Both the position numbers and the translations under genes were made by a program. From Salinivirgaceae bacterium (lineage in GTDB: Bacteria; Bacteroidota; Bacteroidia; Bacteroidales; SZUA-534), in NCBI GenBank assembly GCA_024405635.1, contig JAKSOL010000003.1:1-64000 (forward strand): a stretch of DNA of 64,000 nt. Reading direction: 5' to 3'. Positions 1,992-33,985 of the stretch are shown here, one piece after another. The first letter of the stretch is position 1; each line of letters begins with the position of its first letter. The notes under the pieces are model-generated. The model ran no database searches, was not told the origin of the DNA, and saw nothing but the letters and a program-made list of their open reading frames with translations.

Positions 1992-3383
1992 ATGGGAAAA
2001 ACTTTATTCGACAAAATTTGGGACGCTCACGTTGTTCAGAACGTTGAAGATGGACCAACACAACTATACATCGATCGTTTGTATGCCCACGAGGTTACTT
2101 CGCCTCAGGCGTTCGACACATTGCGCGACAAGGGTGTGAAAGTGTTCCGCCCCGACCACGTTTACGCAATGCCCGACCACAACACACCATCGGACCAACA
2201 AGAGGTGATTAACGACCCAATTGGGCGCAAACAAGTTGAAACCCTTGCAAAAAACTGCGAGGAGTTTGGCATCACCCACTTTGGAATGGGCTCAAAAGAC
2301 AACGGTATTATTCACGTTGTGGGTCCTGAAAAAGCACTTTCGTTGCCAGGTATGACCATAGTTTGTGGCGACTCGCACACTTCAACCCACGGCGCTGTTG
2401 GTGCTATTGCAATGGGTATTGGAACATCGGAGGTTGCTCAAGTTTTGGCATCGCAATGTATTTTGCAAGCTAAACCAAAAACAATGCGTATTAACGTTGA
2501 AGGTGAACTGCCAAAAGGAACCACAGCAAAAGACGTTGCTCTTTACATTATGGCTCAAATGACCACTTCGGGTGCTACTGGCTATGCTGTTGAGTATGCT
2601 GGTTCCGCTATCCGCAATATGTCGATGGAAGGCCGCCTTACTCTTTCAAACCTTTCAATTGAAATGGGTTCGCGTGCTGGTATTATTGCTCCCGACGACA
2701 CAACATTTGCTTACCTAAAAGGTCGCGAATATGCTCCAAAGGGCGAGGCTTGGGACAAAGCTCTTGCTGAATGGAAAAACTTGAAGAGCGACGACGACGC
2801 AGTGTTTGACAAAGAAGTTACTTATCGTGCCGAAGATATTGCTCCACGCATCACTTACGGAACAAACCCAGGTGCTGGTATTGCAATTGATGGTACAATT
2901 CCTACACTTGACCAAATTGCCGAAGCTGACAAAGAGCAATTCCTTGGAATGTTGGATTACATGCAATTTAAACCAGGCGAAAAACTTGAAGGTCACCCAG
3001 TTGACTACTGTTTCCTTGGCGCTTGCACCAATGGTCGCATCGAGGATTTCCGTGCATTTGCATCGGTAGTTAAGGGCAAAAAGAAAGCCGCAAATGTTGT
3101 AGCATGGTTAGTCCCAGGTTCGTGGTTGGTACGCAAACAAATTATTGAAGAGGGCATTGACAAGATTCTTGAAGAGGCAGGCTTTGAACTTCGTTTGCCA
3201 TCGTGCTCATCGTGCTTGGCAATGAACCCCGATAAAGTACCAGCTGGAAAATTATCAATCTCAACCAGCAACCGTAACTTTGTTGGCCGTCAAGGTCCAG
3301 GCGCACGCACAGTTTTGGCTTCGCCATTGGTTGTGGCAGCCAGCGCTATCACTGGTGTTATTACCGACCCTCGTAAATTGTAA
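1992..3383 (+). CDS. leuC: 3-isopropylmalate dehydratase large subunit
   Basis: [56 protein letters not shown]. Confidence 0.97.
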
Positions 3384-14836: not shown

Positions 14837-17761
14837 ATGGGCAGACGCATAATCAACTTTACATTTGTTTTGCTGACTATGCTTTGCGCATCGTGCCACA
14901 AGCAACACAGCGTGGTTGTGCGCACCGACGAAAATGGATTTAAATACGAGTCGGTGGTGGGCGACATTTTTAACAGCAGGTTATACACCTTACGCAACGG
15001 CATGCGAGTAATGTTGAGCGAAAACCACGAAGAGCCTCGCATCAAATCGCACATTAGCGTCAATTCGGGCTCTATTAACGACCCTGACGACTATCAAGGC
15101 CTGTTTTACAGCATGATGCACGTAATGGGCAAAGGCTCGGCTCAATTAGGAACACTTAACTGGGAAAAAGAAGAGCCCATTTTAAACCAAATAGCGCAAA
15201 AATATGAGGCCTATCGGTCAGAAACTGATGCCGAAAAACGTCGCAATATTTATCATCAAATAGATAGCCTATCGGGCGAGGCGGCTAAGTATTCGGTGCT
15301 CGACGAATACAATAAACTGGTGTCGGGACTTGGAGCAAAAGACATTCAGAGCGCAACAGCCGAAGATTTGATGCTTTTTACAATTGACATACCGTCAAAC
15401 GAACTCGAACGCTGGTTGTTGATTGAATCGGAGCGACTTTTTAACATGGTGCCACGTTATTTTCATACTGAAATGGAGGTGGTGTACGAGGGGTACAACA
15501 AGTCGCTAAACCGATCAACTGTAAACTTGTTACGAGCACTTAAACGCAAAGTGCTACAAAATACAAGATATGGCAGAGGGCTAACACTTGGCAATCCCGA
15601 ACACTTAAAAAATCCGTCAATTGATAGCATAATGAGTTACTACAAGCATTATTTCGTTCCACACAATATGCTTATGTGCTTGCAAGGCGATTTTAAATGC
15701 GACGATGCTATTTTGTTGATTGATAGATATTTTGGTAGTGTACCGCGAGTTGAAAGCATTGAAAAAACAGAAGAAAAATATGCCAATGTTGAGCAACGAT
15801 TTGATACTGTTGTGTATGATCATGGCAAACCAATGGTGGCTATTGGCTATTTGGGTCAAAATGTAACCGACGACCACTTGTTTATGATGATACTAAACGG
15901 CATGTTGTGCAATGGTCAAATTGGCTTGCTTGACGACCTTAAAAGCAATCATCAGTTGTTAAACGTTGGAGTACGAAACCGATACAATAGCCTTGCTCAC
16001 GTATTGTGCATCATAGGCGAGCCCAAAAATGACCAGTCGTTGCCTGAGGTTCGCGATATGATTTTGGCCGAAGTGGAGAAAATTTGCAACGACAACTTTG
16101 ACGATTTTCTGTTTGAAGGCGCCAAGAATTTCAGCAAGAAAAAAATAAACAACGAACTGCACGACGATTATGTAGGCGAAGTGGTATTTAGTTTAGCTTG
16201 GGGCTACACATGGCAACAATACTTGAGCAAAATTGAGCGCATTAACACAATAACTCGCAAAGAATTTGTCGATTTTGCCAACCAACATTTAAAAAATCCA
16301 ACCATTTTTCTGAAATATCATGGAGTTGACTCGTCGGCGCATAAAATTGAAAAGCCTGAAATAACAAGCATTAGTACGCAAACCGATCAGCAATCAAACT
16401 TTTATTCAACTGTAAACAACTACATAAACCAACCAATTTCGCCTGTTTTTGTCGATTATCGTCAAGCTATAAAAACAACCAAATTGGCCAACGATATTTA
16501 TTTTGATTATGTTGAGGCCGATGTTGCCGATCCTTTCAGCATAAACTATGTGATTGAGTATGGCAGCAGTAACTGCAAGTACCTGTCAATGTTGGCAAAG
16601 CACATAACAAACTTTGCAACAACCGATTATACTGCCAGCGAATTGCGAAAAAATATGTTTCGTTATGGTCTCGATTTAAGCATCAATGTGCAACCAACCA
16701 TCACAATTATCACAATGAGTGGTTTGGAAGATAATTTGGTTGAGGCAATTGACCATGTTGAGCATTTTATTTCAAAAGTTGTGGTTGATAGCGCTTTGTT
16801 AGCCGGGCAAATAGAACTTGAAAAAGCAACTCGTCGCAACAACAAAGTTGATATTGATAGCATTGCCGCAGCACTTGAGCGTTACGCAACGTATGAAAAT
16901 AAATCGCTACGCCAATGCCATTTTACCGACTACGAACTTGATAATCTTACGGTTAGCGATGCAATTGAGCAAATACGCAACATTTGCAATTATCCGCACA
17001 GGGTTTATTACTACGGGCATCGTCAGTTTAACGATGTGCTTGACATTGTGCGCAAACACCATCGGTTGCCAATTACAACATTAAAACCTCAGTTGAAAAA
17101 TTTACCTAAAGAGCGTAGGCATCCGCAGTCAAAGGTCTATTTTGTCGATTTGCCTGGAGCAACGCAAGTGTCGGTTGGTTTAACTGCAATTGACGATTTG
17201 CCCGATGCTGAACAATATGCTTACTCGTCAATTTTTAACGACATTTACGATCTTGGACAAACATCGATGGCGAGCCTTGCTGTGCGCGAAACCCGAAGCT
17301 TGTCGCATTCTGTAAAAATGAGCATGCAAATGCCGTCGTCGCTTAATAATCGCATAAGGCTAACTGCTCAACTGTTTACTCAGCCCGATAAGGTTGTTGA
17401 TGCAATTGATGTTCTGCATAAACTGGCAACTATTGAACCTTCTGACAGCGATTTGTTTGAATCGCGTCGCGATATGATTTTGCATCATATTGAGACTGAG
17501 CGTATTATACCCCCAAAACTGTATCGGTCTTGGTATCATAGCGAAATACTTTACAATATTGATTTTGATGCTCGTCAGGTTAAATATAATTTGGCTCGCT
17601 CCATTACTTTCAATCAGTTTAAACATTATTTCCGTACACATGTTGCGCAGCATCCGCAAAGCATTCTGCTTGTTGGCAACAAAAAGAATCTTGACCTTAA
17701 ATCGCTTGAGCAATTTGGCAAAGTGGAAGAGGTTAGTGTTGAAGATGTGATTGGTTATTGA
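14837..17761 (+). CDS. M16 (insulinase) family lipoprotein, probably catalytically degenerate
   Basis: YTLRNGMRV, GSINDP, NELERWL, IMSYYKHYFVPHNM; HxxEH position reads YSMMH; lipobox-like ASC. Confidence 0.85.
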   Translation: MGRRIINFTFVLLTMLCASCHKQHSVVVRTDENGFKYESVVGDIFNSRLYTLRNGMRVMLSENHEEPRIKSHISVNSGSINDPDDYQGLFYSMMHVMGKGSAQLGTLNWEKEEPILNQIAQKYEAYRSETDAEKRRNIYHQIDSLSGEAAKYSVLDEYNKLVSGLGAKDIQSATAEDLMLFTIDIPSNELERWLLIESERLFNMVPRYFHTEMEVVYEGYNKSLNRSTVNLLRALKRKVLQNTRYGRGLTLGNPEHLKNPSIDSIMSYYKHYFVPHNMLMCLQGDFKCDDAILLIDRYFGSVPRVESIEKTEEKYANVEQRFDTVVYDHGKPMVAIGYLGQNVTDDHLFMMILNGMLCNGQIGLLDDLKSNHQLLNVGVRNRYNSLAHVLCIIGEPKNDQSLPEVRDMILAEVEKICNDNFDDFLFEGAKNFSKKKINNELHDDYVGEVVFSLAWGYTWQQYLSKIERINTITRKEFVDFANQHLKNPTIFLKYHGVDSSAHKIEKPEITSISTQTDQQSNFYSTVNNYINQPISPVFVDYRQAIKTTKLANDIYFDYVEADVADPFSINYVIEYGSSNCKYLSMLAKHITNFATTDYTASELRKNMFRYGLDLSINVQPTITIITMSGLEDNLVEAIDHVEHFISKVVVDSALLAGQIELEKATRRNNKVDIDSIAAALERYATYENKSLRQCHFTDYELDNLTVSDAIEQIRNICNYPHRVYYYGHRQFNDVLDIVRKHHRLPITTLKPQLKNLPKERRHPQSKVYFVDLPGATQVSVGLTAIDDLPDAEQYAYSSIFNDIYDLGQTSMASLAVRETRSLSHSVKMSMQMPSSLNNRIRLTAQLFTQPDKVVDAIDVLHKLATIEPSDSDLFESRRDMILHHIETERIIPPKLYRSWYHSEILYNIDFDARQVKYNLARSITFNQFKHYFRTHVAQHPQSILLVGNKKNLDLKSLEQFGKVEEVSVEDVIGY

Positions 17762-30817: not shown

Positions 30818-30980
30818 TAAAAATAAACTCGCCCGAAATGGGTTAAAAACTATTGTTCGGGCGAAATAATCCTAAAAATAAACTCGCCCGAAGTGTATTG
30901 AAATGTGTTGTTCGGGCGAAATAATTTTAAAAATAAACTCGCCCGAACCGATGTAATTTGTATATTTGTGGCGAGTTAAT
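30818..30980. repeat. Array of three 55-bp units with alternating inverted half-sites TCGCCCGAA / TTCGGGCGA
   Basis: TAAAAATAAACTCGCCCGAA at 30818, 30873 and 30928; TTGTTCGGGCGAAATAAT at 30853 and 30908; degenerate sixth site near 30966. Confidence 0.92.
30961..30968 (+). promoter_or_regulatory. -7 promoter (TATATTTG) overlapping the last repeat half-site
   Basis: TAnnTTTG 23 nt upstream of the ATPase ATG. Confidence 0.6.
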
Positions 30981-30991
30981 TTCTTTGTGTC

Positions 30992-32434
30992 ATGAAAGAA
31001 AATATCATTGGTCGAGCTCGCGAAACAGAGCAACTGCAAGCGATATACAATTCTGGAAATGCCGAATTTACAGTGGTTTATGGGCGCCGACGTGTTGGAA
31101 AAACATTTCTTGTTAGAGAATATTTTGAAAAAGATTTTGCCTTTTATCACACGGCCTTGTCTCCTTTTGAATTGACCGATAATGAAGAACTCCTATTGAG
31201 TCAACAATTACAAAGTTTTCATAGTTCGCTCAAACTTTATGGCGATTATCATGACAATTCTCCTAAAAACTGGATTGAAGCTTTTGATTGGTTGCGAGAT
31301 TTGCTTATCCGCAAGTCGCGAAAGAAACGTTTGGTTGTTTTTATTGATGAATTACCATGGCTTGACACTCCAAGGTCGGGATTTGTTACAGCGTTTGAGC
31401 ATTTTTGGAATGGGTGGGGCGCAGGTCAGAAAAAACTACTGCTTATTGTTTGTGGTAGCGCAACATCGTGGATATCAGATCAACTATTGAACAACACAGG
31501 TGGGCTTTATGGGCGTACAACAAAAGAAATTAGCGTGTCGCCGTTTACGCTAAAAGAAACTGAACAATTCCTGAAATCGAAAGGCATAGTTTATAATCAT
31601 TATGACATTCTTGAAACTTATATGGTTATGGGCGGCATACCATATTACTTGTCGTATATGGAAAAAGGTATGTCGGTGGCGCAAAACATTGATAATATCT
31701 TTTTTAAAAAAGGCGGAAAACTCGAAAATGAATTTATTCGGTTGTTTAGTTCTCTTTTTGTTGATTATGAACGATACATTTCGTTTGTGCGATTTTTGAG
31801 CCAAAAACGTAAAGGGTTTACGCGCAAAGAAATTGCTGAGCATTTTAATATGACTTCTGGCGGCGGCCTCTCAAAAATACTTCAAACACTATGTGCTAGC
31901 GATTTTGTGATGCCGTATGTCAATTTTGACCATTCAAGTCGCGAAGTATATTATAAACTAACTGATTTCTTTTCGCTTTTTTACTTCTATTTCATCGACA
32001 ATCGTAAAACTCTCAATCCTAGTTTTTGGCAAGAAAATAGCAATTCTCCATCGCTTAAATCGTGGCGCGGATTTTCGTTTGAAGAGGTGTGCTTTATGCA
32101 TCAAGACAAGATAAAAGCAGCTCTTGGCATAAGCGGCATACACACTGAAGTGTCGTCGTGGATGACCAAAAATAAAGAGGAAAATGCGCAGATTGACATG
32201 CTGATAGTTCGTGATGACAGGATTGTTAATATCTGCGAAATGAAGTTCCACTCTACTGAAGTGGCAATAGATAAAGACATGGATAAAAATCTCCGTAATA
32301 AAATGGATGTTTTTATGACGGAAACTAAATGCAAAAAAACACCGCAAATAGTATTGGTAACAACTTACGGATTGAAACAGAGCCTGTATGGCAGTGTGGT
32401 GCAGAAAGTTGTAACTATGGATGATTTGTTTTAA
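30992..32434 (+). CDS. AAA/archaeal-type ATPase with central winged helix and C-terminal PD-(D/E)xK-like (DUF234-type) domain
   Basis: IIGRARE, GRRRVGKT Walker A, VFIDE Walker B, GGIPYY, TRKEIAEHF..GGLSKIL HTH, QIDMLI..ICEMKF. Confidence 0.88.
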   Translation: MKENIIGRARETEQLQAIYNSGNAEFTVVYGRRRVGKTFLVREYFEKDFAFYHTALSPFELTDNEELLLSQQLQSFHSSLKLYGDYHDNSPKNWIEAFDWLRDLLIRKSRKKRLVVFIDELPWLDTPRSGFVTAFEHFWNGWGAGQKKLLLIVCGSATSWISDQLLNNTGGLYGRTTKEISVSPFTLKETEQFLKSKGIVYNHYDILETYMVMGGIPYYLSYMEKGMSVAQNIDNIFFKKGGKLENEFIRLFSSLFVDYERYISFVRFLSQKRKGFTRKEIAEHFNMTSGGGLSKILQTLCASDFVMPYVNFDHSSREVYYKLTDFFSLFYFYFIDNRKTLNPSFWQENSNSPSLKSWRGFSFEEVCFMHQDKIKAALGISGIHTEVSSWMTKNKEENAQIDMLIVRDDRIVNICEMKFHSTEVAIDKDMDKNLRNKMDVFMTETKCKKTPQIVLVTTYGLKQSLYGSVVQKVVTMDDLF

Positions 32435-32573
32435 GCGGAGACTATTTGTCGGCCGCATAAGATATAAGAGGATTCTTGCAACATTGTCGCAAATATTGAG
32501 TTATTTTGTGAGAAAGTTTAATTGGTAAATATTCAGAACAACTGGATATGTAAACCAAATTATAAAGAATTAG

Positions 32574-32621
32574 ACGCCCACGCTCCAAAGGCGAAAATAA
32601 GGTTGGAGCAACGATATAAAT
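32574..32621 (+). repeat. Intergenic element copy 1 (pseudoknot-compatible)
   Basis: ACGCCCACGCTCCAAAGGCG...AAGGTTGGAGCAACGATATAAAT; recurs at 33563-33680. Confidence 0.8.
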
Positions 32622-32844
32622 GAGTATGTATAATTTACGCGACATAGTAGAATATACGGTTATGTTGATTGGCTCGTTTGCTAAGAGATATAACATTAGC
32701 AGTCGGGAGGCTCAGTCATATTTGAGTCGCTATGGCGCTTTAGATTTGATTCAGTCTCATTATGGCATTATGCATACACAACGATTTGAGGATATGGTAG
32801 ATGGCTTGTCTGCTTTTTGCAGAAGGAAGGGCGGTAATTTATGA
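32620..32844 (+). CDS. DUF3791-like small protein
   Basis: FAKRYNIS..AQSYLSRYGALDLIQSHYGIMHT; ATGA-coupled to the DUF3990 gene. Confidence 0.75.
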   Translation: MSMYNLRDIVEYTVMLIGSFAKRYNISSREAQSYLSRYGALDLIQSHYGIMHTQRFEDMVDGLSAFCRRKGGNL

Positions 32845-33317
32845 AACTATATCATGGCTCAAATATGGTTATTGATAGGATAGACTTGTCATGTTCCAAA
32901 CCAAATAAAGATTTTGGAAAGGCATTCTATTTGTCCGATGATTATGCACAAGCCGAGGAGATGGCTATGCTGAAAACTGTTTTCCTTGGAGGAACCCCGA
33001 TTGTTATGACCTTTGACTTTGATGAGTCATTGGTATCTAACGGAACATTACGATTCAAAAGTTTTGAAAGTTATACCGAGGATTGGGCTCGTTTTATTTA
33101 TGACCATAGAAATGATGAACAAGGACGAACATTGCATGACTATGATGTTGTGTATGGTCCAATAGCCAACGATAGAGTCGGAGCTCAAATCAACAATTTC
33201 AGGAATGGTTATATATCTTTTGAAACATTCTTGGAACGAATAAAATATATGAAAGGCATAACTTTTCAATATGCCTTTTGCACGCAGTTGGCAATATCGA
33301 AATTGAAGAGAATATGA
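32841..33317 (+). CDS. DUF3990 family protein (possible ADP-ribosyltransferase-like toxin)
   Basis: MKLYHGS, KDFGKAFYL, YDVVYGPIAND, QYAFCT. Confidence 0.8.
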   Translation: MKLYHGSNMVIDRIDLSCSKPNKDFGKAFYLSDDYAQAEEMAMLKTVFLGGTPIVMTFDFDESLVSNGTLRFKSFESYTEDWARFIYDHRNDEQGRTLHDYDVVYGPIANDRVGAQINNFRNGYISFETFLERIKYMKGITFQYAFCTQLAISKLKRI

Positions 33318-33556
33318 ACGTTACAAAGCAAGAGTTCGATTTTATGGTTCAATCGCTCACAACCGATTTGATTACCATTCTAACAGAGAAAAATCATCTT
33401 TCTGTTAGCAAGGCTTTCGATGTTTTGTATCAGTCAAATACCTTCGCCAAACTTTGTGATGCAAACACAGGTTTGTATTATCAGTCAGCAAGATATATTT
33501 ATAGTTATCTTGTAGAAGAAAAGAAAGAAATGATTGACCAAGCATTGGCTTGTTGA
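33314..33556 (+). CDS. Small hypothetical protein (DUF3791-related partner)
   Basis: ATGA overlap; AFDVLYQSNTFAKLCDANTGLYYQS resembles typical DUF3990 neighbours. Confidence 0.7.
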   Translation: MNVTKQEFDFMVQSLTTDLITILTEKNHLSVSKAFDVLYQSNTFAKLCDANTGLYYQSARYIYSYLVEEKKEMIDQALAC

Positions 33557-33562
33557 TTATAA

Positions 33563-33680
33563 ACGCCCACGCTCCCAAGGCGTATCCGACGACAAACCGA
33601 GCGCAATCAAGCATGCTTGAATTGCCGAGGTGCGAAGAAGGAAGACCTAAGGTCAAAAAGGTTGGAGCAAAGACATAAAT
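33563..33680 (+). repeat. Intergenic element copy 2, carrying an ~70-bp palindromic insert
   Basis: ACGCCCACGCTCCCAAGGCG [insert containing TCAAGCATGCTTGA] AAGGTTGGAGCAAAGACATAAAT. Confidence 0.8.
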
Positions 33681-33767: not shown

Positions 33768-33985
33768 ACGGATGAGTTGTATAAACTAGGTCCGTAGTGT
33801 GTCTGAGGGTATTATGTGCCCTCCCGACACACTCTACGGGTGTTTATATACTTCTCTGCGTGGGTATTTTGCATCTGCTCGTCTATTGTATAGGGTTTCT
33901 CAGGGCCTCGAATTCGGACGAGTTTGGTGCAAATGCCCACGCTTTTTTTGTTTAATAAGAATACTGACAATGGGCATTTGTCAGT
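33768..33985 (+). ncRNA. Candidate structured RNA/leader with several mutually exclusive hairpins
   Basis: Stems at 33768-33795, 33792-33839, 33858-33942 (followed by T7) and 33963-33985, paired by eye. Confidence 0.45.

Follow-up and report, generated by a model that had tools for sequence, protein, structure and literature searches.

What is the role of an array of palindromic repeats that runs up to the start of a gene for an ATPase-nuclease? This question is posed by the first 64,000 nucleotides of contig JAKSOL010000003.1 from a Salinivirgaceae bacterium (order Bacteroidales; assembly GCA_024405635.1), the stretch that we call the window throughout. Here three 55-bp repeat units directly precede a gene for a 480-residue protein that combines AAA+ ATPase, winged-helix and PD-(D/E)xK-type domains and that, by profile, is a member of the candidate defence family PDC-S27 (COG1672). 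Comparison of homologous loci at the level of sequence shows that the array belongs to this gene family, that its core is specific to lineage and paralog, and that the core tracks a residue of the recognition helix. We consider it probable that the array provides phased cognate sites for the winged helix of the downstream protein, with negative autoregulation as the predicted outcome; physical binding, its stoichiometry, the direction of the regulation and any link to defence are inferred.

The array comprises three head-to-tail units (30818-30872, 30873-30927 and 30928-30982; spacings of 55 and 55 bp), which are respectively 100, 84 and 69% identical to the first. Each unit is made up of a 17-nt left half-site (AAATAAACTCGCCCGAA), 15 intervening nucleotides and an 18-nt right half-site (TTGTTCGGGCGAAATAAT) that is the reverse complement of the left one, and the core centres of successive half-sites are alternately 27 and 28 bp apart. 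The last unit contains the sequence TATATTTG, which from its consensus we take to be a Bacteroidetes-type -7 box and which is seen at the same place in many homologs; transcription would presumably start a few nucleotides downstream of this box at 30961-30968. A sequence-only reading of this DNA had described an exact 55-bp period, three 15-nt intervening sequences, half-sites alternating in orientation every 27/28 bp and a degenerate sixth half-site overlapping the -7 element. The unit starts at 30818, 30873 and 30928, the intervening stretches (all three exactly as it had written them), the core centres and the position of the last half-site (30963-30980) relative to the box bear out this description, and the protein features that it had named are likewise recovered, namely Walker A (G31-T38), Walker B (D119/E120), a winged helix at about residues 259-323 and D402...E416-x-K418.

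The 13-nt core has three exact copies in the window, all of them within the array. When up to two mismatches are allowed there are 11 matches in the window, as against 1.78 +/- 1.21 in 100 shuffled sequences, none of which reached 11, and a 20-mer searched with up to three mismatches recovers just the three array places in the whole 2.66-Mb genome. The possibility that the half-site is a restriction-like target avoided by the host was considered and rejected for the bare 9-nt core, which occurs 56 times in the host genome against an expectation of 53.3. A lone half-site-like word on the minus strand (33913-33925), one mismatch away from the 13-nt core and with no partner, lies 1.5 kb downstream of the gene and may be either a chance occurrence or a relic. 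Separately, a contig from another sample (run X4) matches the window over about 38 nt ending at 30822, the left edge of the array, and then continues in unlike sequence; this match is too short to interpret.

Downstream of the array, the gene begins with an ATG at 30992. Its product matches ATPase_2 (PF01637; E 7.5e-18; cut-off 33.2 bits), with the Walker A and B motifs conserved, and the PDC-S27 profile PDLC04984, as provided in PADLOC-DB 2.0, covers it over its full length (E 5.4e-191; residues 2-480 on profile positions 2-473 of 474). The match of residues 351-422 to DUF234 (PF03008) is weak, with 16.2 bits (E 0.014) lying below the cut-off of 22.5; 29 of 60 family members match this model (best E 2e-4), and the nearest named Atlas cluster is DUF234 (score 0.97). 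DUF234 is counted as a PD-(D/E)XK family in the accessible text of PMC3424549. In an alignment of 60 relatives little or no variation is seen in Walker A, Walker B and the D...ExK triad, with D402, E416 and K418 invariant. The AlphaFold2 model (predicted local distance difference test score 91.5; predicted template modelling score 0.88) consists of a nucleotide-binding domain, a helical domain, a winged helix and a C-terminal alpha-beta-beta-beta-alpha-beta domain, which bears D402 and E416-x-K418. Foldseek ranks the archaeal ATPase_2 proteins 2qen and 2fna first, followed by the STAND ATPases Apaf-1 and NLR and by DNA-bound Cdc6/Orc1. Furthermore, in a sequence-profile comparison residues 247-328 align with the winged helices of MepR/MarR (E ~0.01), and it is on account of this alignment that S289-GGG-L293 is taken as the start of the recognition helix.

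We collected 161 homologous loci, 40-69% identical to the query, mostly from Bacteroidales and including Clostridia-like, Succinivibrionaceae and Treponema records. Scoring covered 154 family loci, among them the gene in the window and its own paralog; many of these are close kin, and they represent 131 distinct upstream sequences. Start codons and half-site registers were assigned by script, inverted repeats were scored by arm matching (10 or more matches out of 12, in the 220 nt upstream), and 747 genes of the window's genome served as controls. An upstream inverted repeat is found at 143 of the 154 family loci as against 180 of the 747 control genes; perfect repeats (12 of 12) are found at 79 and 16, and four or more half-site instances at 65 and 7, respectively. 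The upstream regions of homologs, to which the sequence-only reading had pointed as the place to look, thus do contain such repeats in 143 of 154 cases. In a set of 79 loci, a gene's own half-site has 278 copies in the 600 nt upstream (47.4 kb in total) versus 79 in the remaining 468 kb.

These arrays share a common plan, with an A/T flank (TTATT-like), a central GCC-like triplet, a core that varies between lineages, A/T-tract linkers and tandemly arranged units. Neighbouring half-sites of the same orientation are 52-55 bp apart in 135 of 163 cases (52 bp in 21, 53 bp, the mode, in 72, 54 bp in 15 and 55 bp in 27). The linkers are 72% A+T compared with 54% in controls, and 182 of 266 contain a run of at least four A or T, versus 38 of 246. 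Across the 131 distinct loci the number of half-sites ranges from 2 to 17; the largest array (L031) has 17 half-sites in at least nine near-identical 55-bp units that span positions -501 to -59 relative to the ATG. At 50 of the 131 loci the -7 box is overlapped by the last half-site; at 61 the entire array is located upstream of the box, and at 20 no box was found. At the Clostridia-like and Treponema loci, which were read by eye, the last half-site overlaps or abuts sigma-70-type -35 boxes.

Which protein, then, could read these sites? No conserved neighbour gene was detected, the commonest neighbour family being present at 4 of 82 dereplicated loci. The sites differ between paralogs of one genome: the second copy in the window's genome, 45% identical to the gene under study, has the core TCGCCAAAA where the latter has TCGCCCGAA. 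Further evidence comes from a 3.1-Mb genome (G061, that of locus L089; loci L190-L216) with 29 protein matches, in which 21 of the 24 full-length paralogs carry arrays. Allowing one mismatch, 19 of these 21 paralogs have two or more copies of their own half-site, and cross-occurrence of a half-site at another paralog is seen in 3 of 420 ordered pairs, in none of them with two or more copies; with two mismatches allowed it is seen in 39 of 420.

The site also varies along with the protein. All 28 taxa that have CA or GA at half-site positions 8-9 have threonine or serine at residue 292, while 11 taxa have T or S without CA/GA and 77 have neither trait. On the protein tree the trait at positions 8-9 changes on six branches, and all six coincide with a change of residue 292, which itself changes on 10 of 230 branches (Fisher p = 1e-9, a post hoc value given that the hypothesis was formed by eye on the same data). 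A scan of the alignment columns, contrasting the majority with the rest, ranks column 292 first (p = 6e-5). In the AlphaFold2 model this residue is located in the first turn of the helix formed by residues 291-302, as would be expected of a residue that contacts bases. The co-variation appears supportive, though not decisive, for the gene's own winged helix as the reader, and together with the paralog-specific sites and the want of a conserved neighbour it is the reason why we propose that winged helix in this role.

Under this proposal, the variable core NN-GCC-NNN of the ~17-bp half-site would be contacted by residues 289-293, the turn at the N-terminus of the recognition helix, and the conserved A/T flank probably by the wing. 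Given that the units recur every 52-55 bp, or about five helical turns, successive units would face the same side of the DNA, and the upstream units, phased in this manner, could add cooperativity. In the window the last unit sits on the promoter, with its left half-site at -33 and its right half-site overlapping the -7 box, so that its occupancy should stop transcription. Such negative autoregulation might keep a potentially harmful ATP-dependent nuclease at a low and buffered level, with the nuclease being released if the protein were drawn elsewhere. The protein could bind either as one monomer on each half-site, like Orc1, or as bridging dimers. As the bare 9-nt core is not avoided by the host, strong binding would need the flank, the pairing of half-sites or the array.

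Several results weigh against this proposal. The 9-nt core is common in the host genome, so the core alone gives too little specificity. With 61 of 131 arrays clear of the -7 box and 20 loci without a box, repression by occlusion is not a general rule. The winged helix of STAND NTPases (Apaf-1 and NLRs, which are among the nearest folds) is regulatory and is not known to bind DNA, and the solo arrays and flanking direct repeats described below hint at a further or different role. Scans not directed at residue 292 gave no significant result: for the tree co-change of all core positions with all columns, the smallest p among the 362 columns was 0.027; the per-position version yielded nothing in the winged helix; none of 56,468 state pairs passed Bonferroni correction, with the top pairs scattered over the protein; and a sliding-window contrast of same-core with different-core pairs, which is confounded by relatedness, gave z ~1.9 for the recognition-helix window and equally high values for several windows in the nuclease domain. 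An out-of-sample application of the residue-292 rule to the G061 paralogs gave 2 of 4 versus 1 of 16 (p = 0.088). Thus, the co-variation of array and winged helix that the sequence-only reading had envisaged holds at residue 292 in a post hoc comparison and did not reach significance in unbiased scans. Its suggestion of an operator for the ATPase itself, serving autoregulation, is favoured by the comparative evidence, whereas six sites are not a fixed number (2 to 17 half-sites in 131 loci), the oligomerisation that it envisaged is a conjecture, and fusion of the array to the promoter does not describe the general layout.

Direct repeats of 25-122 nt bracket 20 of 140 family genes as against 5 of 600 control open reading frames. 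For 16 of these 20 genes the repeats enclose 1474-1671 nt, which corresponds to the gene with minimal flanks. On reading the loci, the repeat is the array itself in at least eight (L083, L094, L106, L153, L112, L169, L171 and L061): L094, for instance, has the order array-ATPase-array-gcvT, and L083 the order promoter unit-ATPase-promoter unit-rnhA. At others (L035, L039, L040, L041, L045/L113, L089 and L141) the repeat is host DNA unrelated to the array, such as terminators, promoters or gene starts. It is a terminator hairpin at L039 and L045 and a promoter region at L089, and at L141 it consists of the promoter together with some 40 codons from the start of a symporter gene, of which the downstream copy is intact. 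The copy in the window has no flanking direct repeat, as is the case for 120 of the 140 family loci, and when 40 relatives were searched for an empty site of L089, no clear junction emerged.

Solo arrays are also seen. In G179, which is related to the L094 genome, the left flank is the same and is followed by one partly decayed array (L225) and gcvT, with no ATPase gene between them and no family member in the genome at E<=1e-40; in G180 an intact solo array (L226) is accompanied by only 46%-identical paralogs elsewhere. The flanking repeats and solo arrays lead us to conclude that family genes are gained or lost as cassettes, with solo arrays left behind. Among 101 protein pairs with identities of 90% or more, 25 differ in their number of units. 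In one pair with 98.7% identity, L137 is without exactly one of the units of L087, the one on the -7 box, and with the loss of its promoter unit that copy may be silent. One of the control open reading frames, G000:C1:8338-9600 (+), has five inverted 12-mer instances upstream together with a flanking 68-nt direct repeat, and may be a cassette of a different family.

These data bear on what else the array might do at the DNA level. One alternative is that the protein binds the array mainly for a purpose other than control of transcription, using it as a home address, a loading, nucleation or sequestration site comparable to the origin recognition boxes (ORBs) of Orc1/Cdc6, where the AAA+ protein would assemble or be kept inactive and the nuclease would thereby be restrained or primed. 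The protein shares its fold with Cdc6/Orc1 and archaeal ATPase_2 proteins, its ~17-bp asymmetric half-sites are paired in inverted orientation over A/T-rich DNA immediately before the gene, and archaeal origins lie upstream of cdc6 in like manner. An array clear of the -7 box at 61 of 131 loci would also be accommodated, as would the 17 half-sites of L031, which are beyond the needs of a repressor, and a nuclease triad that is invariant in 60 aligned members. Nevertheless, the many loci with a single unit exactly on the promoter are explained by plain autoregulation, and we regard this alternative as unlikely in its own right, while noting that it is compatible with autoregulation and that both may hold together. 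Somewhat more doubtful is a non-regulatory role for the array as an attachment or recombination-type site in cassette gain and loss, possibly acted upon by the nuclease of the protein. The excess of direct repeats around family genes, mostly enclosing the gene with minimal flanks, their identity with the array in at least eight loci, the solo arrays of G179 and G180 and the variable number of units all speak for such a role. Set against them, the array is on one side only at most loci, the window included, several of the flanking repeats are host sequences with no relation to it, the protein has no recombinase fold, and ordinary homologous recombination between any repeats would give the same losses. 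A broader conjecture, which we put forward as improbable, is that PDC-S27-type genes are self-addressed single-gene cassettes, in which each copy would have its array as a private address, read by no winged helix but its own, and the ATPase-nuclease would use this address both for its own level and for copying, insertion or excision. This would explain the host-DNA repeats, the double-sided arrays, the solo arrays and the 29 copies with distinct sites, and, if true, such a cassette would represent either a type of mobile or selfish element not recognised before or a defence gene that carries its own mark of self.

Two further readings would remove the protein from the array altogether. That an unrelated host regulator binds the array, with the ATPase gene being merely its target, is very unlikely given that there is no conserved neighbour gene, that the site differs between paralogs of one genome, that the layout follows the gene across phyla and that the site changes along with residue 292 in the winged helix encoded by the gene itself. 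Even less credible is the view that the array works as RNA, be it as hairpins, as a processed small or guide RNA or as a memory akin to clustered regularly interspaced short palindromic repeats (CRISPR). A transcript of the array would be strongly folded (-56.3 kcal/mol, z = -7.4), but so would that of any array of palindromes, and the predicted transcript begins downstream of the array since the -7 box sits in its last unit. The arms show 1192 mismatches, of which 686 are of a kind other than G-U whichever strand is read; the G-U-type mismatches number 297 on the plus strand versus 209, a modest excess that probably stems from the requirement for the -7 box. In Rfam searches the region produced no hit above E 0.18, and neither the window nor four loci produced one at gathering scores. 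The stretches between the half-sites, which the sequence-only reading had entertained as spacers of a non-CRISPR array yielding hairpin or guide RNAs, prove to be linkers with A/T tracts shared across lineages and with promoter elements, one of them holding the -7 box. They are also retained in a strain variant: a contig from another run, 99% identical with 12 differences over 1033 nt, has all three units and all three stretches, with two substitutions in the array, at 30900, within an intervening stretch, and at 30913. With the arm mismatches and the Rfam result, this leaves the RNA product unsupported. No phage DNA match to the array was found among 50,697 phage records. The array is flanked by an M23 peptidase gene and the ATPase gene, with no adjacent cas genes, and the sole Cas1 match of the genome is on another contig (C34:88092-88781); the statement of the sequence-only reading that there are no cas genes therefore stands for this contig as far as searched. 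One metatranscriptome has contigs within the gene only (31166-31502 and 31535-31705) and none over the array, all the RNA data being assembled contigs from which transcript starts are not readable. The preferred reading thus continues to be that of cognate sites for the protein's own winged helix, and the features concerned are collected in Table 1.

Table 1. Positions of the array, its half-sites, the gene and its motifs in the window, with solo arrays and repeat-flanked loci in other genomes
Feature	Position	Strand	Remarks
Array, three 55-bp units / six alternating half-sites	30818..30982	none	
Left half-site 1, A/T flank + core TCGCCCGAA	30821..30837	+	
Right half-site 1	30853..30870	-	reverse complement of left
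Left half-site 2	30876..30892	+	
Right half-site 2	30908..30925	-	C>A at 30913 in strain variant
Left half-site 3	30931..30947	+	at expected -33 element position (promoter position predicted)
Right half-site 3	30963..30980	-	degenerate; overlaps -7 box
Putative Bacteroidetes -7 promoter box TATATTTG	30961..30968	+	23 nt before ATG
480-aa gene: AAA+ (ATPase_2), winged helix, PD-(D/E)xK (DUF234)	30992..32434	+	PDC-S27 match
Walker A, G31-R-R-R-V-G-K-T38	31082..31105	+	
Walker B, D119/E120	31346..31351	+	
Winged helix, residues 259-328	31766..31975	+	helices 259-269, 278-284, 291-302 (recognition helix); wing strands 306-309, 320-323
S289-G-G-G-L293	31856..31870	+	N-terminal end of recognition helix
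C-terminal PD-(D/E)xK-type domain, residues 353-475	32048..32416	+	
D402	32195-32197	+	invariant
E416-x-K418	32237-32245	+	invariant
Solo array L225	G179:C87 ~2383-2528		upstream of gcvT; second unit decaying
Solo array L226	G180:C64 ~15788-15898		upstream of gcvT; intact
Loci with flanking direct repeats	L035, L039, L040, L041, L045, L061, L072, L083, L086, L089		
Loci with flanking direct repeats, continued	L094, L106, L112, L113, L141, L153, L169, L171, L177, L183		

Immediately downstream of the gene lies a three-gene DUF3791/DUF3990 unit (32620-33556) that matches PADLOC PDC-M13 A/B/C. It is bracketed by direct repeats at 32571-32621 and 33560-33680, the second copy being interrupted by about 70 nt, and the repeat holds a small hairpin, GCTCCAA...TTGGAGC. 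As a PDC-M13 match adjoins a PDC-S27 match, two candidate defence cassettes are neighbours at this locus. The family protein also occurs in 5 of 50,697 phage records, at 25-40% identity; among phage sequences, MT835483.1 and MN180249.1 (Wolbachia phage WO) carry members that are 37-40% identical, and a locus from IMG/VR (L187) has inverted repeats upstream too.

The array offers a testable handle on PDC-S27, in the form of a predicted sequence-specific winged helix, a ~48-bp site and a candidate specificity residue, along with dozens of natural protein-site pairs that are seemingly mutually distinct within one cell. If the proposed autoregulation is true, it would account for the restraint placed on an ATP-dependent nuclease and could possibly furnish orthogonal protein-operator pairs for Bacteroidetes genetics. 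It would also raise the question of why the family genes are often bracketed by duplicated host DNA, leaving solo arrays.

Among previously described systems, the closest is PDC-S27 itself. In the accessible parts of the respective reports, it is presented as an ATPase fused to a PD-(D/E)xK domain (PMC12988326), as a candidate arising from 'guilt by embedding' whose function was not assayed (bioRxiv 10.1101/2024.01.29.577857), and as one of the most abundant candidate defence genes in archaea and rumen bacteria (PMC12988326, PMC13356809). The gene in the window agrees with this family (COG1672-type: ATPase_2 + DUF234) in its full-length profile match, its domain make-up and its occurrence as a single gene with no obligatory partner (the commonest neighbour being found at 4 of 82 loci). 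It differs from the published descriptions, as far as their accessible text goes, in that these mention neither an upstream array nor a DNA-reading winged helix nor autoregulation, and our search of the literature on PDC-S27, DUF234 and COG1672, which covered sources other than supplements and subscription journals, found no description of the array.

CRISPR arrays are similar in that partly dyad-symmetric direct repeats alternate with non-repeated stretches. They are dissimilar in that the present array has three units and 15-nt 'spacers', one of them with a promoter box, and is tied to an unrelated gene family. MarR autorepressors such as MepR share an alignable winged helix and a palindromic operator that overlaps their own promoter, whereas the protein studied here is a 480-aa multidomain ATPase-nuclease as opposed to a ~150-aa dimeric regulator, and its half-site centres are ~27 bp apart and repeated in tandem; matches to MarR_2 are seen in 4 of 60 family members (best E 0.0031) and to MepR in the PDB at E ~0.01, all below the family thresholds. 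The C proteins of restriction-modification systems present another parallel, combining a mobile nuclease gene with tandem palindromic operators, the C-boxes, which lie upstream of the regulator and set the expression of the nuclease gene, and with sites specific to each system that keep the systems separate. The likeness would lie in the tandem palindromic operators and the system-specific sites; the family described here is set apart by a DNA-reading domain within the nuclease-ATPase, a ~53-bp period and the lack of a methyltransferase partner.

Finally, Orc1/Cdc6 proteins have the same combination of AAA+ domain and winged helix (Foldseek 2qby_B, E 2.8e-9; 1w5t_A, 4.1e-9; and 2v1u, within a range of 1e-9 to 1e-7). 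This likeness is one of fold only, as in sequence the ORC5 hits have E values of 0.35 or worse. ORBs are long asymmetric inverted sites near the gene of the protein that binds them, and the array resembles them in its long asymmetric sites, inverted across A/T-rich DNA and upstream of their own gene. The differences are the extra nuclease domain of the present protein, its up to 29 copies per genome with private sites, its ordinary chromosomal flanks and the lack of any sign of origin function, at which no test was aimed, and this copy number argues against membership among the Orc1/Cdc6 initiators. Thus, in working terms the array resembles MarR autorepression, the C-boxes and Orc1/Cdc6 on ORBs, and the gene is in none of those families.

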